Source: a virus (lineage: Duplodnaviria; Heunggongvirae; Uroviricota; Caudoviricetes). Taken from it: DNA of 12,106 nucleotides. The stretch lies in the IMG/VR virus record IMGVR_UViG_2744054964_000001. The stretch is one strand, 5' to 3'. The first letter of the stretch is position 1. Every line of letters begins with the position of its first letter. This document shows positions 1-9,973 of this stretch, piece by piece. The position numbers were made by a program, and so were the translations under genes. The notes beneath the pieces are model-generated. The model was given only the letters and a program-made list of their open reading frames with translations, searched no databases and was not told the DNA's origin.

Positions 1-1254
1 ATGCTGGAACAAATGGGCATTGCCGCGAAGCAAGCCTCGTATAAATTAGCGCAACTCTCCAGCCGCGAAAAAAATCGCGTGCTGGAAAAAATCGCCGATG
101 AACTGGAAGCACAAAGCGAAATCATCCTCAACGCTAACGCCCAGGATGTTGCTGACGCGCGAGCCAATGGCCTTAGCGAAGCGATGCTTGACCGTCTGGC
201 ACTGACGCCCGCACGGCTGAAAGGCATTGCCGACGATGTACGTCAGGTGTGCAACCTCGCCGATCCGGTGGGGCAGGTAATCGATGGCGGCGTACTGGAC
301 AGCGGCCTGCGTCTTGAGCGTCGTCGCGTACCGCTGGGGGTTATTGGCGTGATTTATGAAGCGCGCCCGAACGTGACGGTTGATGTCGCTTCGCTGTGCC
401 TGAAAACCGGTAATGCGGTGATCCTGCGCGGTGGCAAAGAAACGTGTCGCACTAACGCTGCAACGGTGGCGGTGATTCAGGACGCCCTGAAATCCTGCGG
501 CTTACCGGCGGGTGCCGTGCAGGCGATTGATAATCCTGACCGTGCGCTGGTCAGTGAAATGCTGCGTATGGATAAATACATCGACATGCTGATCCCGCGT
601 GGTGGCGCTGGTTTGCATAAACTGTGCCGTGAACAGTCGACAATCCCGGTGATCACAGGTGGTATAGGCGTATGCCATATTTACGTTGATGAAAGTGTAG
701 AGATCGCTGAAGCATTAAAAGTGATCGTCAACGCGAAAACTCAGCGTCCGAGCACATGTAATACGGTTGAAACGTTGCTGGTGAATAAAAACATCGCCGA
801 TAGCTTCCTGCCCGCATTAAGCAAACAAATGGCGGAAAGCGGCGTGACATTACACGCAGATGCAGCTGCACTGGCGCAGTTGCAGGCAGGCCCTGCGAAG
901 GTGGTTGCTGTTAAAGCCGAAGAGTATGACGATGAGTTTCTGTCATTAGATTTGAACGTCAAAATCGTCAGCGATCTTGACGATGCCATCGCCCATATTC
1001 GTGAACACGGCACACAACACTCCGATGCGATCCTGACCCGCGATATGCGCAACGCCCAGCGTTTTGTTAACGAAGTGGATTCGTCCGCTGTTTACGTTAA
1101 CGCCTCTACGCGTTTTACCGACGGCGGCCAGTTTGGTCTGGGTGCGGAAGTGGCGGTAAGCACACAAAAACTCCACGCGCGTGGCCCAATGGGGCTGGAA
1201 GCACTGACCACTTACAAGTGGATCGGCATTGGTGATTACACCATTCGTGCGTAA
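1..1254 (+). CDS. proA: gamma-glutamyl phosphate reductase (glutamate-5-semialdehyde dehydrogenase)
   Basis: Full-length 417-aa ORF ending at TAA 1252-1254. I recognise the sequence as enterobacterial ProA, with an aldehyde-dehydrogenase-type catalytic Cys motif [12 protein letters not shown]. Its position directly upstream of thrW matches the E. coli proBA-thrW locus. Confidence 0.97.
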
Positions 1255-1368: not shown

Positions 1369-1444
1369 GCCGATATAGCTCAGTTGGTAGAGCAGCGCAT
1401 TCGTAATGCGAAGGTCGTAGGTTCGACTCCTATTATCGGCACCA
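1369..1444 (+). tRNA. thrW: tRNA-Thr (anticodon CGU)
   Basis: 76-nt cloverleaf folded by hand. Acceptor stem GCCGATA/TATCGGC, D stem GCTC/GAGC, anticodon loop TTCGTAA (CGT), T arm GTAGG-TTCGACT-CCTAT, encoded CCA end. It matches my memory of E. coli thrW. Confidence 0.97.
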
Positions 1445-1609: not shown

Positions 1610-2824
1610 GTGAAACTCAATGCCCGTCAAATAGACACAGCCAAGCCAAAAGAGAAGGCTTACAAGCTGGCCGATGGTGGCGGTTTGTATCTCTTGGTAA
1701 AACCTAATGGAGGTAAATACTGGCGACTTAAATATCGTGTAGCTGGTAAAGAGAAGCTATTGGCACTAGGTGTGTATCCTGAGGTTACTCTAGCCGATGC
1801 GCGAGCTAAACGTGAAGATGCGAAAAGGGGTATCGCTGGTGGTATCGATCCGATGGAAGCGAAACGAGAGGAAAAGATTGCCCGGGAAACGCAGTTAAAC
1901 AACACCTTCAAAGATATTGCCCTTGAGTGGCACAGCAGCAAATTAAAAAAATGGTCTGCTGGTTATGCTTCAGACATCCTCGAAGCCTTCAACAAAGATG
2001 TGTTCCCTTACATTGGCAAAAAACCAATCGCCGAAATCAAACCACTTGAACTTCTGAATGTGCTGCGGCGCATCGAGGGGCGCGGTGCTACAGAAAAAGC
2101 CAAAAAAGTGAGGCAGCGGTGCGGGGAAGTTTTCCGCTATGCAATAGTCACTGGTCGCGCAGAGTATAACCCTGCACCAGACCTTACTAGCGCGATGCAA
2201 GGTCATGAATCTAATCATTACCCTTTCCTTACAGCCAAAGAATTACCTGATTTTTTCAAGGCATTGTCCAGTTACTCAGGAAGCGCATTGGTTGTTATGG
2301 CGGCTCGTCTACTGATTATCACCGGCTTGCGGACTGGCGAACTACGTGGCGCATTATGGGATGAAATTGATTTCAACAAGGCTATCTGGGAGATACCCGC
2401 TTCACGTATGAAAATGCGGCGGCCTCATATTGTGCCATTGTCTGAGCAGGCTCTTTCGCTTATTGGGAAGATTAGAGAAATAACAGGCAATTACCCTCTT
2501 ATGTTTCCCGGGCGCAATGATCCAAGGAAAACAATGAGCGAGGCCAGCATAAACCAAGTGTTTAAGCGCATTGGCTACGCTGGACGTGTAACTGGTCATG
2601 GGTTCCGGCACACTATGAGTACGATTTTGCATGAGCAGGGCTATAACACTGCGTGGATAGAAACGCAGCTCGCTCACGTTGATAAGAACTCAATTCGTGG
2701 CACATACAACCATGCGCAATATCTGGATGGAAGGCGGGAGATGCTTCAATGGTATGCCGACTATATGGATTCTCTCGAGCATGGCGGAAATGTGGTGCAT
2801 ATGGTGTTTGAAAAACACGCATGA
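1610..2824 (+). CDS. int: P4-family tyrosine integrase
   Basis: 404-aa ORF with a GTG start 9 nt after GGAGG. The N-terminus is typical of P4-like integrases (KLADGGGLYLLVKPNGGKYWRLKYR...LALGVYPEVTLADAR). The catalytic signature is present: TGLRTGEL, HGFRHT, RGTYNHAQY. It is adjacent to the tRNA. Confidence 0.95.
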   Translation: MKLNARQIDTAKPKEKAYKLADGGGLYLLVKPNGGKYWRLKYRVAGKEKLLALGVYPEVTLADARAKREDAKRGIAGGIDPMEAKREEKIARETQLNNTFKDIALEWHSSKLKKWSAGYASDILEAFNKDVFPYIGKKPIAEIKPLELLNVLRRIEGRGATEKAKKVRQRCGEVFRYAIVTGRAEYNPAPDLTSAMQGHESNHYPFLTAKELPDFFKALSSYSGSALVVMAARLLIITGLRTGELRGALWDEIDFNKAIWEIPASRMKMRRPHIVPLSEQALSLIGKIREITGNYPLMFPGRNDPRKTMSEASINQVFKRIGYAGRVTGHGFRHTMSTILHEQGYNTAWIETQLAHVDKNSIRGTYNHAQYLDGRREMLQWYADYMDSLEHGGNVVHMVFEKHA

Positions 2825-2830
2825 AACAAC

Positions 2831-2859
2831 TGGACAAGTATACAGAGGTTTACTAAAGT
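2831..2859 (+). promoter_or_regulatory. weak candidate sigma70 promoter upstream of the nut-like array
   Basis: TGGACA (2831-2836), a 17-bp spacer, then TAAAGT (2854-2859). This is a consensus-by-eye match only. Read-through from int is an alternative transcript source. Confidence 0.25.
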
Positions 2860-2894
2860 ATAAGGGAGTAGATTGATAAAAACTCACAGAGGAT

Positions 2895-2925
2895 TGCTAT
2901 TTAACAGTTAGCCATGGAGAAGGGC
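2895..2925 (+). promoter_or_regulatory. boxA-like motif + degenerate lambda nutL-type boxB
   Basis: TGCTATTTAACAG (2895-2907) matches rrn boxA TGCTCTTTAACAA at 11/13. After 3 nt comes GCCATGGAGAAGGGC (2911-2925), a 13/15 match to lambda nutL boxB GCCCTGAAGAAGGGC. One mismatch breaks a stem pair. Confidence 0.45.
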
Positions 2926-2928
2926 AAT

Positions 2929-2958
2929 TGCTCTTTTAACAACGAAGATGGAATCTTC
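2929..2958 (+). promoter_or_regulatory. boxA-like motif + 15-nt boxB-format hairpin
   Basis: TGCTCTTTTAACAA (2929-2942) is rrn boxA with one extra T. After 1 nt comes GAAGA-TGGAA-TCTTC (2944-2958), a 5-bp stem with a pentaloop. Confidence 0.5.
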
Positions 2959-2962
2959 TACG

Positions 2963-2991
2963 CAGCTGAAAAGCTGGATGCTCTTTAACAG
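2963..2991 (+). promoter_or_regulatory. GAAA-tetraloop hairpin + near-consensus boxA
   Basis: Hairpin CAGCT-GAAA-AGCTG (2963-2976), then 2 nt, then TGCTCTTTAACAG (2979-2991), a 12/13 match to rrn boxA. Nine nt further on is the hairpin CTTTCCT-GATGC-AGGAAAG (3001-3019). Confidence 0.55.
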
Positions 2992-3076
2992 CCTTTGGTG
3001 CTTTCCTGATGCAGGAAAGAATAGGGATACATGCACCTTTACAATGCATGTAATGATTCATCCATGAGGCTGCGGA

Positions 3077-3107
3077 GCGCTGACAAAGCGCAATTGCTCT
3101 TTAACAT
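3077..3107 (+). promoter_or_regulatory. P22-type boxB hairpin + near-consensus boxA
   Basis: GCGCTGACAAAGCGC (3077-3091) has a 5-bp stem and a GACAA pentaloop. From memory it is identical to the P22 boxB RNA used in N-peptide structural work. After AAT comes TGCTCTTTAACAT (3095-3107), a 12/13 match to rrn boxA. The 24-nt unit 3077-3100 is repeated exactly at 3190-3213. Confidence 0.6.
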
Positions 3108-3115
3108 TGATGTGG

Positions 3116-3185
3116 GCGGGATGGTTCATCCCGCAGTGACCGATAGATTTCTATCGGGAAACATACAATGATTCAAATATGAATC
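3116..3185 (+). promoter_or_regulatory. three consecutive short hairpins
   Basis: GCGGGAT-GGTTC-ATCCCGC (3116-3134), CCGATAG-ATTT-CTATCGG (3140-3157) and GATTCA-AATA-TGAATC (3170-3185). All stems are perfect. Confidence 0.45.
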
Positions 3186-3189
3186 TACG

Positions 3190-3244
3190 GCGCTGACAAA
3201 GCGCAATTGCTCTCTTGCCTGCCCACCATGCCCTGAAAAAGGGC
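3190..3244 (+). promoter_or_regulatory. second P22-type boxB + degenerate boxA + exact lambda nutR boxB
   Basis: GCGCTGACAAAGCGC (3190-3204), then AAT, then TGCTCTCTT (3208-3216, a degenerate boxA). After a 13-nt spacer comes GCCCTGAAAAAGGGC (3230-3244), which is 15/15 identical to lambda nutR boxB. Confidence 0.7.
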
Positions 3245-3265
3245 GTTCTTTAAAACTACTGGATG

Positions 3266-3300
3266 TCACGCCTAATAGCGTGATCCTGCCGAAATGCAGG
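3266..3300 (+). promoter_or_regulatory. two further hairpins with hexaloops
   Basis: TCACGC-CTAATA-GCGTGA (3266-3283). Its hexaloop starts CUAA, like my recollection of the phi21 boxB loop CUAACC; this link is tentative. The second hairpin is CCTGC-CGAAAT-GCAGG (3285-3300). Confidence 0.35.
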
Positions 3301-3354
3301 GTAGCTCTACCCTTGTGGAGCAAACAAACCAAAACAATCTGACTATCTTTTATA

Positions 3355-3389
3355 AAAGACCGCAATATGTTTTTCATATTGTGGTCTTT
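3355..3389. terminator. 15-bp-stem hairpin (possible bidirectional terminator or operator) upstream of alpA
   Basis: AAAGACCGCAATATG-TTTTT-CATATTGTGGTCTTT pairs over 15 bp with one G-U. An A tract lies 5' and a short T tract 3'. It sits 87 bp upstream of the alpA ATG and is preceded by a 20-nt G-free C/A tract (3321-3340). Confidence 0.4.
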
Positions 3390-3475
3390 GGCGTATTCGA
3401 CATTTGACGCAAATAAAACTCTCGCCATTCGTTGCAGGAGGGGGTTATTGCGTCATTAGTACAGGATATTAATAA

Positions 3476-3679
3476 ATGGCTAATTACAATTCATTAATTC
3501 GTCTCTCTGAAGTTCAAAGGCGAACTGGTTATAGCAAAGCATGGATTTATCGTCTTATTAGTCAGGGGAGGTTCCCTAAACAGGTAAAAATTGGAAGTCG
3601 GGCAATTGCTTTTGTTGAGTCTGAAATAGATGAATGGATTGAGAAGTGTATATTAGAATCTAGAGACGAGGTGGCCTGA
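3476..3679 (+). CDS. alpA: AlpA-family (Vis-like) DNA-binding regulator / excisionase
   Basis: 67-aa ORF with the typical AlpA pattern LIRLSEVQRRTGYSKAWIYRLISQGRFPKQVKIGSRAIAFVESEIDEWI. It is the first gene of the island operon, and its stop overlaps the next start by 1 nt. Confidence 0.9.
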   Translation: MANYNSLIRLSEVQRRTGYSKAWIYRLISQGRFPKQVKIGSRAIAFVESEIDEWIEKCILESRDEVA

Positions 3680-4110
3680 TGGAAAAGAAAAACCGCCCAT
3701 TACAGGCGGCTAACTCAGATATTCGCACGTCTGATATTACGCCGACCACCAGCCCGGTACAAGTACCTAGGCGTACCCCAAAGAAACACCGCGCCCGCGT
3801 CTATATGCTGCGTACTGGTATAGAGGGATGGACAGAAAACGACATTCTTCGCTACTGCCGTCTGTCTTCTGGTCGTAACTATGCAACAGAGTTAGAACGC
3901 CAGCTTGGAATCACTCTGGAGCGTATCGACGAAAAGAATCCTGATGGTATCGGAACACACCTTCGCTACCGTTTCTCCTGCCGTGGTGATGTTCTGAAAG
4001 TGATCACTCATGTTAACCATCTTGCGAACATAAATGATCACAACGGACTTTCTCAGCAGGAAATTGCCGACATTCTGAAACTCTACCCGGACGCGTTTAA
4101 CGCCGCCTAA
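3679..4110 (+). CDS. hypothetical protein (basic, probably disordered N-terminus)
   Basis: 143-aa ORF translationally coupled to alpA (TGATG overlap). I recognise no domain. Confidence 0.7.
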   Translation: MEKKNRPLQAANSDIRTSDITPTTSPVQVPRRTPKKHRARVYMLRTGIEGWTENDILRYCRLSSGRNYATELERQLGITLERIDEKNPDGIGTHLRYRFSCRGDVLKVITHVNHLANINDHNGLSQQEIADILKLYPDAFNAA

Positions 4111-5187: not shown

Positions 5188-5419
5188 TCTGCAACCTTAC
5201 AAAACCTGATATTGATACCGCAGCGCCTGGAGTTCCGTTACCAGTACGCGAGGCGCTTACCCTCAACAAAAAGATGGTGAGCCGTGCACAGGGAAAACTC
5301 TTAAAGGGTTACGGTTTTATCTGGTATGACCACCTAGCAGAGAAAAGCTGTTATAGTCCAAGCGTTGCTGCAAAATCAGCAACCGGGCGTGAGAACCCGA
5401 ACACACTCAGGGCGACACA

Positions 5420-5441
5420 GACGCCGAAAGCGTCTTTTTTT
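5420..5441 (+). terminator. candidate intrinsic terminator inside the leader of the icd-like gene
   Basis: GACGC-CGAAA-GCGTC followed by seven T residues (5435-5441). The stem is short (5-6 bp), so confidence is moderate. Confidence 0.5.
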
Positions 5442-5466
5442 GTGTCCATTCACTACGCACATCAAA

Positions 5467-5603
5467 TCAGCGGACTTACCCGTACTGTATCAATGGTGGC
5501 GTTAGTGGGGCTACGTTCGCGTAGGCCGGTTTCCTTTGTGTCCGGTATTCTCACCCCCGCTGACGTCACCGCCAATTCAGAGCGTGAGAACTCAGGCGGT
5601 GAC
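5467..5603 (+). ncRNA. structured RNA region resembling the P4 CI / P1 C4 immunity-RNA locus ('ash' region); ends not determined
   Basis: A closing stem TCAGCGG (5467-5473) / CCGCTGA (5557-5563) encloses two hairpins: a UUCG-tetraloop hairpin CTACG-TTCG-CGTAG (5511-5524) and CCGG-loop-CCGG (5526-5545). A 9-bp stem follows, GTCACCGCC (5565-5573) / GGCGGTGAC (5595-5603). The conceptual translation (MVALVGLRSRRPVSFVSGILTP) resembles 'Ash family protein' annotations, which overlie the P4 cI RNA gene. Confidence 0.45.
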
Positions 5604-7197: not shown

Positions 7198-7539
7198 ATG
7201 ATTACTAAAAATTTCCGACTTAATGCGCTGGCGAATAAGTATGCGTCGGCACTGTATAACCACATTACGGCTATCAATGGTGGCAATTACTTCATGGTTG
7301 ACGCGGCAGGCCAGCAAATCCGTGTGGAGATCGTCAATGGAGTAAAAGGCGTTCGCAGCCTGATCGATAGCTACACACTGGCAGCCATGAAAGTGTCCTA
7401 CCCGCAGTGGGAAACCGTGGGGGTCGAGCTTCTTGAGCGTTGCGTCACTAAGGACGGATTGACTGACGTCGGGCGCGAGATATGGCAAAGCATGGTTAAA
7501 GACATGGGCGCGACAGTGGCAGGAGGCAATCATGCGTAA
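7198..7539 (+). CDS. hypothetical protein
   Basis: 113-aa ORF with a GAGGGGG SD. Its stop overlaps the primase start (ATGCGTAA). Confidence 0.75.
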   Translation: MITKNFRLNALANKYASALYNHITAINGGNYFMVDAAGQQIRVEIVNGVKGVRSLIDSYTLAAMKVSYPQWETVGVELLERCVTKDGLTDVGREIWQSMVKDMGATVAGGNHA

Positions 7540-9973
7540 TATCGACCTTATCCGCGAAGTGACCAGTGCCGCCGCCGGGCGCTGGCCTTATGTGCTGGCT
7601 GGATTGTCTATCGACGTGCCTGATTCATCGCGCCGCCATTCTCCATGCCCTGCATGTGGTGGAAAAGACCGTTTCAGATTCGACGACAACGGGCGCGGTA
7701 GCTTTATCTGCAACCAGTGTGGCGCTGGTGACGGGCTGGATTTAATCAAGCGGGTTAACAACTGCGACACTACGGAGGCGGCACAGCTTGCCGCTGACGT
7801 GCTGGGTATTGATTACCGGGCAGCGCAAACCGACCCGGTGGCAGCGAGCCATAGAAGAGAGCAACTGGAAGCTGACCGCCAGCAGCGTGAGCAGGAGCGC
7901 CAGAAACAGGCAGCAGAGGATGCAGAGCAGCGAAGGGCTACGTTTGCCCGTCTGTATGCCGGAATGCGCCAGAGTGCCACACAGGGCGAATCTGATTACC
8001 TGCAATCAAAAGGGCTGACCGGGTTTAAATATCCGGTAATGCCGGATGGTTCGTTATTGCTGGAGCTGGTGGACGAATCCGGCGCAGTGGCAGCAGCGCA
8101 AACCATTACACCGCAGGGAGAGAAGCGACTCCTGACAGGTTCAGCAAAGCGCGGGGCATATCACGCCGTAAACGCGCCAGAATCGCCGCAGAGCGTTTTA
8201 ATTGCCGAGGGGCTGGCGACGGCCCTTTCAGTTCACCTGATGCGCCCGGACGCGCTGGCAGTGGCAGCAATTGACGCGGGCAACCTGCTACCCGTTGCCG
8301 AAGTGATGCGCCGGAAACACCCGCAGTCGCAAATTATCATTGCCGCAGATAACGACCACCAGCAGGACGAACAGGCGAACACGGGCAAAGATGCCGCAGA
8401 GAAAGCCGCCTTATCCGTGGCTGGCTGGGTGGCGCTGCCGCCGACAGACTATAAAGCCGACTGGGACGACTACCGCCAGCAAAACGGGCTGGAAGTCGCT
8501 ACGGCTGCGTTTAACGATTCGATGTACCAGATTCAGGGGGAAGCCGTGAAACCACAACTACAGGCCATTGCGGGCGGTAAATCCCGCCGTAAAGCCGAAG
8601 TCGGAGATATTGCACAAATGGCAGCCAGCCAGAAAGCGCGGTTGCTTTCATCTCGATGGGATATGTTGGCGGTTAACCCTGATAGTGGCACTGTTTACTG
8701 TTACGAATCTGGCGTATGGGAGAAGCTACCAGACAGTGAATTAGAAAGGGTTATGGTGGCAATTTTCGACGAGCACGAAGCCCACTACACCGAAAAGGGG
8801 ATTAAATCGGTTGTCGCAACCATGAAGCTGCAAATACCGGTAATTGGTGAGCGGAGCGGGGATCTGATTGGTTTTGATAACGGCGTTTATGACCTCGCCA
8901 CGCAGACGTTTTCCGCCCATTCGCCGGGTAACTGGCTGATGAACCACAATGGGATCACCTACACCCCGCCAGCGCCGGGGGAAAATATTACCACCAGCGC
9001 CCCCAATTTTACCCGTTGGCTGAATCATGCAACGGCTGGCGACCATCATAAGGCCGAGCGTATCAAAGCAGCCTTGTTTATGGTGCTGGCGAAGCGTCAC
9101 GACTGGCAGCTATTCATTGAGATAACTGGCGAGGGCGGCAGTGGGAAATCCGTATTCAGCAGCATAGCAACCACGCTGGCAGGTGAACACAACACCGCCA
9201 GCGGTAGCATGATGACGCTGGACACCGCACGGGGACGAGCGCAGTTCGTAGGAAAAAGCCTGATTATTATGCCTGACCAGACCCGCTATGTTGGAGAGGG
9301 TGCGGGGATTAAGGCCATTACGGGCGGCGATCCGGTAGAGATTGATGGGAAATATGAAAAGCAGTTCACAACCGTGCTAAATGCCGTTGTTATGGCAACC
9401 AATAACGAGCCGATGACATTCACGGAGCGAAACGGGGGCATTGCCCGCCGCCGCGTGATATTCCCGTTTAATAACCCGGTATCAGACGCAGACAAAGACC
9501 CGGATTTAACCGCAAAAATCAGGCGAGAAATCCCGGTGATTATCCGCCACCTGCTAACCACCTTTGCCGACCAGAACAAAGCAAAGGCACTATTACTAGA
9601 GCAGCGCGATTCGCAGGAGGCGCTAGAGGTTAAACGCGGCACAGATCCGGTTGTCGATATGTGTGCGGCGCTTTTTTTCATGAACGAACCCAAAGGCATG
9701 ATGATGGGCGGAGGTACATGGGCAGGCCAGCCAGAGCCGAGGACATATCTTTATCATCTTTATCTGGCGTTTATGGAGTATCACGGCCTGGGTAAACCGC
9801 TTTCCGTCAATAAGTTTTCACGCGCCATAAAATCAGCAGCAAAAGAGTACCGAGCCAGCTACCTGACGAGAAGCATTAACGGCAGAGCGCAAACCAACGT
9901 TGGCTATAACGAGAAGGCTGAGGAGTTCATGCCACGCGCTTACGGCGTGGAGAGCGGGCAGAGTGATGATTGA
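7532..9973 (+). CDS. P4 alpha-type bifunctional DNA primase / SF3 helicase
   Basis: 813-aa ORF. It has an N-terminal Cys4 zinc ribbon CPACGGKDRFRF...CNQCG starting at codon 39 (nt 7646). Toprim-like motifs are LIAEGLATA and IIIAADND. The Walker A motif is GEGGSGKS (nt 9128-9151) and LIIMPD is Walker-B-like. Overall architecture matches P4 gp-alpha. Confidence 0.95.
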   Translation: MRNIDLIREVTSAAAGRWPYVLAGLSIDVPDSSRRHSPCPACGGKDRFRFDDNGRGSFICNQCGAGDGLDLIKRVNNCDTTEAAQLAADVLGIDYRAAQTDPVAASHRREQLEADRQQREQERQKQAAEDAEQRRATFARLYAGMRQSATQGESDYLQSKGLTGFKYPVMPDGSLLLELVDESGAVAAAQTITPQGEKRLLTGSAKRGAYHAVNAPESPQSVLIAEGLATALSVHLMRPDALAVAAIDAGNLLPVAEVMRRKHPQSQIIIAADNDHQQDEQANTGKDAAEKAALSVAGWVALPPTDYKADWDDYRQQNGLEVATAAFNDSMYQIQGEAVKPQLQAIAGGKSRRKAEVGDIAQMAASQKARLLSSRWDMLAVNPDSGTVYCYESGVWEKLPDSELERVMVAIFDEHEAHYTEKGIKSVVATMKLQIPVIGERSGDLIGFDNGVYDLATQTFSAHSPGNWLMNHNGITYTPPAPGENITTSAPNFTRWLNHATAGDHHKAERIKAALFMVLAKRHDWQLFIEITGEGGSGKSVFSSIATTLAGEHNTASGSMMTLDTARGRAQFVGKSLIIMPDQTRYVGEGAGIKAITGGDPVEIDGKYEKQFTTVLNAVVMATNNEPMTFTERNGGIARRRVIFPFNNPVSDADKDPDLTAKIRREIPVIIRHLLTTFADQNKAKALLLEQRDSQEALEVKRGTDPVVDMCAALFFMNEPKGMMMGGGTWAGQPEPRTYLYHLYLAFMEYHGLGKPLSVNKFSRAIKSAAKEYRASYLTRSINGRAQTNVGYNEKAEEFMPRAYGVESGQSDD

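Follow-up and report, generated by a model that had tools for sequence, protein, structure and literature searches.

We analyzed a 12,106-nt stretch of DNA (IMG/VR virus record IMGVR_UViG_2744054964_000001, hereafter "the window"), which is Escherichia coli DNA carrying a phage satellite of the Gram-negative phage-inducible chromosomal island (PICI) type integrated at thrW. Between the satellite's integrase gene, int, and alpA, the gene for its master activator, the plus strand holds an array of nut-type units, a G-free C/A tract and a hairpin conserved in two lineages. We consider it probable that this hairpin is a plus-strand terminator or insulator. Our reading of the region as a whole is that the hairpin is a plus-strand terminator or attenuator that insulates alpA and is bypassed by RNA polymerase modified by phage N protein, and we give this full chain of events about even odds (roughly 0.5).

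Under this reading, the leader would be transcribed at a low level, either from int or from a promoter of its own, and the transcripts would halt at the hairpin, closing a long untranslated leader and leaving alpA off. The N protein of a lambdoid helper phage would bind its cognate boxB on the nascent leader, with Nus factors at boxA, and the N-modified polymerase would then pass the hairpin barrier into alpA. Auto-activation by AlpA, which is known from another allele (PMC6092414), would then lock the switch. N-dependent transcription antitermination complexes withstand Rho-dependent and intrinsic terminators alike (PMC10250234), and the stop at the hairpin could be intrinsic, Rho-dependent in the manner of lambda tR1, or a mixture of the two. 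Helpers induce alpA transcription in Gram-negative PICIs (PMC6092414; PMC11773190): a 2018 paper described the inducer as a matter of continuing investigation (PMC6092414), and an account from 2025 describes the induction only as helper-dependent (PMC11773190). Full-text literature searches returned no paper in which alpA or a phage satellite is connected with nut, boxB or N.

Structure, strand and conservation of the hairpin

The initial annotation had described a hairpin with a 15-bp stem, a single G-U pair and a TTTTT loop between the array and alpA, and this structure was confirmed. The left arm (AAAGACCGCAATATG, 3355-3369), the loop (3370-3374) and the right arm (CATATTGTGGTCTTT, 3375-3389) give 15 pairs, of which one is the wobble G3362.U3382. 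The plus-strand RNA folds at -20.8 kcal/mol, as against -6.6 +/- 2.2 for shuffled sequences (z -6.4; 0 of 200 shuffles folded as well), so the structure is not a product of chance. No other inverted repeat in the window that has a short loop and separate arms is as long. Taking the two lineages together, the stem of 11-15 bp with five G-C pairs, the 4-5-nt loop and the folding energy of -13.4 (core) to -20.8 kcal/mol are those of a stable terminator stem.

The segment 3244-3475 is found in 292 of 5426 complete E. coli genomes, with at least 99% identity in 272 of them and about 77% identity in 13. The diverged copy is a sister element located at a tRNA-Gly site (L008 and L089, about 77-80% identity). 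Its hairpin, ACCACAACAUG-UUUU-CAUGUUGUGGU followed by UUUUGUCGUGUU, keeps the 11-bp core, and all three substitutions within that core preserve pairing (U-A to C-G, G.U to A-U), while in the 5' flank about 40% of positions have changed. The outer AAAG/CUUU pairs belong to the window lineage only. Exact 18-mer and composite boxB-plus-boxA patterns, run against metagenome and viral contigs for further diverged leaders, retrieved the same two lineages and chance hits.

The two lineages agree on which strand looks like a terminator. Our terminator scan requires at least five U in the eight nucleotides immediately 3' of the stem. The sister hairpin was called on the plus strand only, with an 11-bp stem and the tail TTTTGTCGTG; its eight nucleotides (TTTTGTCG) include five U, whereas those of the window (TTTGGCGT) include four. 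Tail scores from a TransTermHP-style formula were, on the plus strand, 3.67 for the window (among the best 2.1% of window positions) and 4.56 for L008 (among the best 0.34%); the minus-strand tails scored 4.38 and 2.44, respectively. Together, the plus-strand-only call in the sister and the tail scores indicate that the plus-strand terminator reading is conserved and that a bidirectional one is not.

This bears on the suggestion, made in the initial annotation, that the flanking A and T tracts resemble a bidirectional terminator. These tracts turn out to be the outer three pairs of the stem, and both the upstream A tract and a competitive minus-strand tail are features of the window lineage, absent from the sister. 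A terminator acting on the minus strand, or on both strands, to halt antisense transcription from the alpA side could draw on the good minus-strand tail of the window lineage (UUUUAUAAAAG), but in the sister that tail has deteriorated to ATTGCATAAG. Moreover, the minus-strand stem contains an A.C mismatch and folds at only -16.3 kcal/mol in the window lineage, the interval 2700-3800 has no promoter-like site on the minus strand, and all genes in this region are on the plus strand. We therefore regard a minus-strand role as highly improbable.

A consensus fold of seven distinct leader sequences (RNAalifold) recovered three small hairpins upstream of the C/A tract, the C/A tract itself in unpaired form, the hairpin core, and a stem formed by TGACGC and GCGUCA downstream of it. 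One-sided changes in the leader are all wobbles that are valid on the plus strand only, and two pairs are compensatory. These changes support a function of the whole leader as plus-strand RNA.

They also bear on whether the 15-bp inverted repeat might be recognized as DNA, as an operator for a dimeric protein such as AlpA, Int or a recombination directionality factor, or a helper repressor, an alternative that the initial annotation had placed on an equal footing. The repeat is a near-perfect palindrome, its symmetric arm substitutions would fit a co-evolving operator as well as an RNA stem, and AlpA-family proteins bind DNA (Pfam HTH_17, Phage_AlpA). The one asymmetry in the repeat, however, is a plus-strand G.U, in keeping with the plus-strand wobble conservation of the remaining leader, and in both lineages a T-rich tail lies 3' of the stem on the plus strand. 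The half-site GACCGCAATATG has no other copy in the 12 kb at up to two mismatches, and the annotation of the element includes no repressor gene, immunity being RNA-based via C4/isrK. A 5-nt centre with 15-bp arms is likewise atypical for small winged helix-turn-helix recombination directionality factors, which usually bind direct repeats. On balance, an operator is very unlikely.

The nut-type array upstream of the hairpin

Each unit of the array consists of a boxB-like hairpin with a boxA-like element directly 3' of it, which is the order found in rrn leaders, and the boxA-like element lies 13 to about 85 nt before the next boxB. The boxA-like sequence matches the rrn boxA consensus. Every unit is sense-oriented relative to alpA, and two of the boxBs are of known N-binding types. 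The first, GCCCTGAAAAAGGGC at 3230-3244, has exactly the sequence annotated as the Nutr boxB of lambda. The second, at 3190-3204, is together with its 5' spacer homologous to annotated nutL: the segment 3160-3207 has 92-96% identity to a sequence found in hundreds of E. coli genomes. In O157 prophages this counterpart has the cI-stk block on one side and, on the other, an N gene whose 127-aa product is rich in arginine at its N-terminus; the counterpart is annotated as nutL or its boxB in the GenBank records of 933W-like phages and mEp234. Judged by sequence, genuine nut-type units lie upstream of the hairpin; N would be expected to bind them and to bring about read-through.

We found no array in 80 alpA-homolog loci from other Enterobacterales, where a motif scan gave two isolated boxA-like elements and one boxB-like hairpin; none of these 80 loci has the leader. 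Seven further alpA alleles of E. coli contained no boxA or boxB motifs by the same scan, and direct reading of the int-alpA spacer of the satellite EcCICFT073 revealed no array either. Given that the scan came back empty or nearly so in other loci and alleles, the array is specific to the two E. coli lineages and not a chance assembly of motifs. Array and hairpin occur together in all of the approximately 45 array-bearing loci that we read, in both lineages.

The array is modular. Close relatives of the element at thrW (L004-L007, 1501-1930) lack one to three boxB/boxA units while their flanks are identical, and some carry other boxB loops, for example GCCCTGGAGAAGGGC and CGCTGAAAAGCG; the length of the spacer ranges from 391 to 651 nt. 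The first boxB-like hairpin of the window, GCCATGGAGAAGGGC at 2911-2925, differs from the GCCCTGGAGAAGGGC of L004-L006 and L186 by a stem-breaking C-to-A change, and the unit looks decayed.

The three small hairpins between the last boxA and the C/A tract have the loops CUAAUA, CGAAAU and CCUU. They show one compensatory pair and several wobble changes that are valid on the plus strand only, and they may be further boxB-type modules; the 3265-3284 hairpin probably resembles the boxB of phage 21.

More tentatively, and with somewhat less confidence than in the gate itself, we propose that this PICI lineage senses a helper through the helper's own N. The strain-variable array would cover several lambdoid N specificities (lambda, 933W/H-19B/P22-like and others) while the terminator gates alpA, and the early programme of a matching phage would switch the satellite on. 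The leader RNA might in addition act as a sponge for N. Antitermination through N and nut is classical, as are terminator gates; to have both a terminator and a nut array of several specificities before the master activator of a satellite would be a new arrangement of these parts. If the proposal is true, N is the phage-encoded inducer for these Gram-negative PICIs and the repertoire of the array sets the helper range, which could then be predicted from the array sequence. It would also be a new way for a parasite of viruses to eavesdrop on a virus's first regulatory step, and engineers could take it up as a natural, modular "phage-infection sensor". The gate hypothesis is concrete and cheap to test, and the lineage is present in about 5% of complete E. 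coli genomes. If the hairpin is an ordinary insulator terminator and nothing else, the finding is routine.

The C/A tract, promoters and the weight of the gate hypothesis

The tract between the small hairpins and the terminator-like stem has the sequence and position that were first reported for it: 20 nt free of G, including an unbroken run of 17 bases of C and A only. Because one 20-nt G-free run is expected per approximately 650 nt at 22% G, such a run is weak evidence when taken alone, although the C/A-only composition is unusual. A 6-nt insertion extends the tract of L008 to 26 nt, still G-free and C/A-rich, and the tract is unpaired in the consensus fold of both lineages. The C/G ratio of the leader is highest at 3305-3364 (2.29), and its best 60-nt window is 27% C and 12% G. 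The description of the tract as rut-like finds a precedent in the annotated lambda rutB, to which it is similar in length, but gains little from the absence of G as such, and the tract is shorter than typical rut regions.

These features raise the question of whether the barrier is a Rho-dependent terminator like tR1, in which the C/A tract and the G-poor left arm serve as rut and the hairpin is mainly a pause site. This would be a sub-case of the gate hypothesis, differing from it in factor dependence only. Lambda rutB is itself C/A-rich, free of G and 20 nt long, and the AU-rich hairpin that follows it lacks a U-tract; the tail in the window is weak, the C/G peak falls over the tract, neither lineage has G or base pairing in the tract, and a long untranslated leader is a natural substrate for Rho. 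Nevertheless, the C-rich stretch that lacks structure covers only about 35-55 nt, where typical rut sites span 70-80 nt. Several rrn-type boxA elements lie upstream and should attract NusB/E and counteract Rho even without N, and the sister allele resembles a regular intrinsic terminator. We consider a tR1-like stop unlikely.

As first annotated, the ATG of alpA lies 87 nt past the stem, at 3476. We find that the TTGACG at 3404-3409 has no usable -10 in either lineage, and a scan of the interval from the hairpin to alpA gave no sigma70-like promoter in the window lineage or in the sister. The earlier statement that alpA lacks a sigma70 promoter of its own therefore holds as far as the scan goes, but it does not discriminate, as will become clear below. 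Between the int stop codon and the array there is no terminator, so read-through from int can feed the leader. The candidate leader promoter listed in Table 1 is weak. Its spacer contains GTATAC-N4-GTTTAC in the window (2836-2855) and GTATAC-AGAT-GTATAC in L008 (2203-2222), and this repeat could be a small operator that overlaps the promoter.

Within the 24-nt block 3' of the hairpin (3400-3423), TGACGC (3405-3410) pairs in the consensus fold with GCGTCA (3451-3456), and the two make up an inverted repeat that is conserved; in a natural variant, TTGATG, the -35 is weaker but a G.U pair of the RNA is retained. The block may be an activator-dependent promoter, a binding site or the arm of an RNA stem. 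In addition, GUAUUC (3393-3398), immediately 3' of the hairpin, can pair with the Shine-Dalgarno region of alpA. The pairing across 3393-3470 may serve translational control of read-through transcripts, or mark a binding site for AlpA.

If the block were a promoter, the hairpin might do nothing more than end int read-through and the approximately 530-nt leader RNA. In this alternative, alpA is transcribed from its own non-consensus promoter within 3400-3460, activated by AlpA or by the helper, and the array does something else, for example serving as decoy RNA that titrates N. PICI AlpA does auto-activate a promoter within the int-alpA spacer in other alleles, and the one so described, EcCICFT073, is induced by helpers without a nut array (PMC6092414). 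Other alpA alleles with a terminator or long hairpin after the upstream open reading frame (ORF) need a proximal promoter and yet score no sigma70 site, and the block 3400-3423 is fully conserved with TTGACG inside it. The TTGACG is, however, followed by no acceptable -10, and the TTGATG variant has a weaker -35 with the RNA pair intact. Furthermore, once N sits on nascent nut RNA it acts in cis on the polymerase that is making that RNA, so read-through of the terminator would follow N binding even if the RNA were also a decoy. We judge this alternative to be somewhat unlikely.

Several points weigh against a terminator bypassed by N, and we gather them here. First, in the window the stem is followed by UUU and then GGCG (TTTGG), and with four T among the next eight bases it falls short of a call by the terminator scan; pairing of all 15 bp would use up the U-tail and lower the tail score to 1.7. 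Second, the covariation does not reach significance (as good a result came from 214 of 500 shuffles), because only two lineages exist. Third, the leader promoter matches at only 9 of 12 positions, and the sister has TAACGT as its -10 and was not called, though the surrounding block is conserved. Fourth, the same scan returned no promoter-like site for two alpA alleles that have no array, L090 and L091, which makes a missing scan-detectable promoter a weak argument for read-through. Fifth, the 24-nt block downstream of the hairpin is 100% conserved and, with its TTGACG, could be an activator-dependent promoter. Sixth, the predicted pairing between the post-hairpin sequence and the alpA ribosome-binding region could leave read-through transcripts poorly translated. 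Finally, EcCICFT073 is induced by lambda and phi80 with neither a nut array nor a comparable hairpin. N read-through is therefore not the general route of PICI induction, and the mechanism, if real, is lineage-specific. What survives of the read-through layout first proposed for this region includes a conserved plus-strand hairpin between a verified nut-type array and alpA; its bidirectionality does not survive, and the U-tail in the window is weak.

The satellite and comparison with known systems

The window has a PICI-type layout: int and alpA are co-oriented at the left, next to a tRNA site, and are followed by a zone with a Bro-type gene and immunity RNAs and by a primase (Table 1); the late zone of the element falls beyond the window. 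This organization into integration, Bro/immunity-RNA and replication parts has been described for Gram-negative PICIs (PMC10111431), in which AlpA is the master activator and auto-activates, and the helpers lambda and phi80 switch on alpA transcription (PMC6092414).

Table 1. Features of the window and the evidence on which each was assigned
Feature	Position	Strand	Basis
proA	1-1254		
tRNA-Thr(CGT), thrW; integration site of the element	1369..1444	+	ARAGORN, Rfam tRNA, annotation of identical locus
Tyrosine integrase (int)	1610..2824	+	Pfam Arm-DNA-bind_3, Phage_int_M, Phage_integrase; annotation
Non-coding int-alpA spacer, 651 nt			
Candidate leader promoter TGGACA-17-TAAAGT, weak	2831..2859	+	scan, 9/12 matches
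Array of nut-type units, each a boxB-like hairpin then rrn-type boxA-like TGCTCTTTAACA	2895..3255	+	repeats, motif scan
boxB hairpins of the array	2911-2925 (decayed), 2963-2976, 3077-3091, 3190-3204, 3230-3244	+	
Three small conserved hairpins	3265-3284 (loop CUAAUA), 3285-3300, 3304-3321	+	RNAalifold, 7 distinct sequences
C/A tract CAAACAAACCAAAACAATCT, rut-like candidate	3321..3340	+	sequence; unpaired in consensus fold
Putative terminator/attenuator hairpin	3355..3389	+	folding; core 3359-3385 (11 bp) in both lineages
U-rich tail UUUGGCGUAUUC, weak in window lineage; sister has UUUUGUCGUGUU	3387..3398	+	
Block identical in both lineages, contains TTGACG (3404-3409)	3400..3423	+	alignments, RNAalifold
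Shine-Dalgarno AGGA of alpA	3463-3466	+	
alpA, Gram-negative PICI master activator	3476..3679	+	Pfam Phage_AlpA, E 7e-20; role per PMC6092414
AntA/Bro-type gene	downstream of alpA		
C4, isrK and c4-a1b1 immunity RNAs	5351-5576		Rfam
P4-family primase	7532-9973		annotation

The Rfam scores at 5351-5576 are 76.9 bits for the C4 antisense RNA, 68.7 for isrK and 54.3 for the c4-a1b1 target. These RNAs sit within an annotated Icd-like gene and represent P1/P4-type RNA immunity on a PICI-like element. We rejected the leader as a target of the element's C4 antisense RNA, since the duplex energy of -42.9 was no better than that of shuffles (-44.7 +/- 5.6). Within 2825-3475, no Rfam family matched at E <= 1. 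A 100-aa ORF on the minus strand (3126-3428) runs over the array and the hairpin and is listed as "hypothetical protein" in a few RefSeq genomes; we treated it as spurious, as it probably is, because it has no Pfam match and spans the indel-variable array.

A close parallel to the region is the lambda segment nutR-rutA/rutB-tR1-cII. In both, a single strand carries in order a boxA-like element, a boxB, a 20-nt G-free C/A tract, an AU-rich hairpin and a regulator. Lambda rutB (TCAAATTAAACCACACCTAT) is 20 nt long, G-free and 3' of the nutR boxB, and is followed by the tR1 hairpin, which has no U-run, and then by cII. Neither system has a strong U-run, the distance from the hairpin to the start of the small regulatory gene is 60-90 nt in both, and the lambda nutR boxB (GCCCUGAAAAAGGGC) is present in the satellite in identical form. 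The differences are also considerable. The satellite has several tandem boxB types where lambda has one; its boxA follows each boxB, whereas that of lambda lies 8 nt before boxB; three extra hairpins separate its last boxB from the C/A tract; its hairpin has 11-15 bp compared with 7 bp in tR1; and it encodes no N protein. The satellite's barrier also lacks detectable homology to any phage record: 3244-3475 gave no match among phage records at E <= 1, and we rejected the idea that it is a captured phage tR1 or tL1.

In phages of the 933W/H-19B/mEp234 type, to whose spacer dyad and boxB (GCGCUGACAAAGCGC) the segment 3160-3207 is 92-96% identical, nutL lies between OL/PL and the N gene and is followed by the early left operon. 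In the satellite, by contrast, the nutL-like site is one unit of an array that leads to a boxA-like element, a terminator-like hairpin and alpA. The boxB-then-boxA order is shared with the E. coli rrn leader antitermination complex (PMC10250234). That complex needs no phage factor and chiefly opposes Rho, whereas the satellite has boxBs of phage-N types and a barrier that looks partly intrinsic.

A terminator gate is also known for Pseudomonas aeruginosa AlpA, where a lysis/induction operon with an intrinsic terminator in its short leader stays silent before an antiterminator has loaded (PMC7969949). There, AlpA is itself the antiterminator and acts through the DNA element GGGACG-N5-GGTA between the -35 and -10 (PMC7969949). 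The P. aeruginosa terminator, tB, lies upstream of alpB, the target of AlpA, while that of the satellite lies upstream of alpA itself. Visual inspection of the candidate promoter and the surroundings of alpA showed no GGGACG-N5-GGTA, no pattern search having been made.

EcCICFT073 and EcCIMP1 are elements of the same type and gene order, with alpA as a helper-induced master activator (PMC6092414, PMC11773190, PMC10111431). The int-alpA spacer of EcCICFT073 differs from that of the window in having AACAAC repeats and a C/A-rich tract in place of a nut array and long hairpin. Five AACAAC-type repeats are spaced at approximately 10-11 nt (L184, 9161-9525) and may be binding repeats for AlpA or a recombination directionality factor, and a long C/A-rich, G-poor tract lies just before alpA. 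A C/A-rich alpA leader is therefore common to non-homologous alleles. A further arrangement is seen in L090/L094, where five copies of the palindrome ACCCTNAGGGT lie between the upstream ORF and alpA (1960-2130). The first two of these copies score as terminator-like hairpins, and this allele looks to follow a different regulatory logic.

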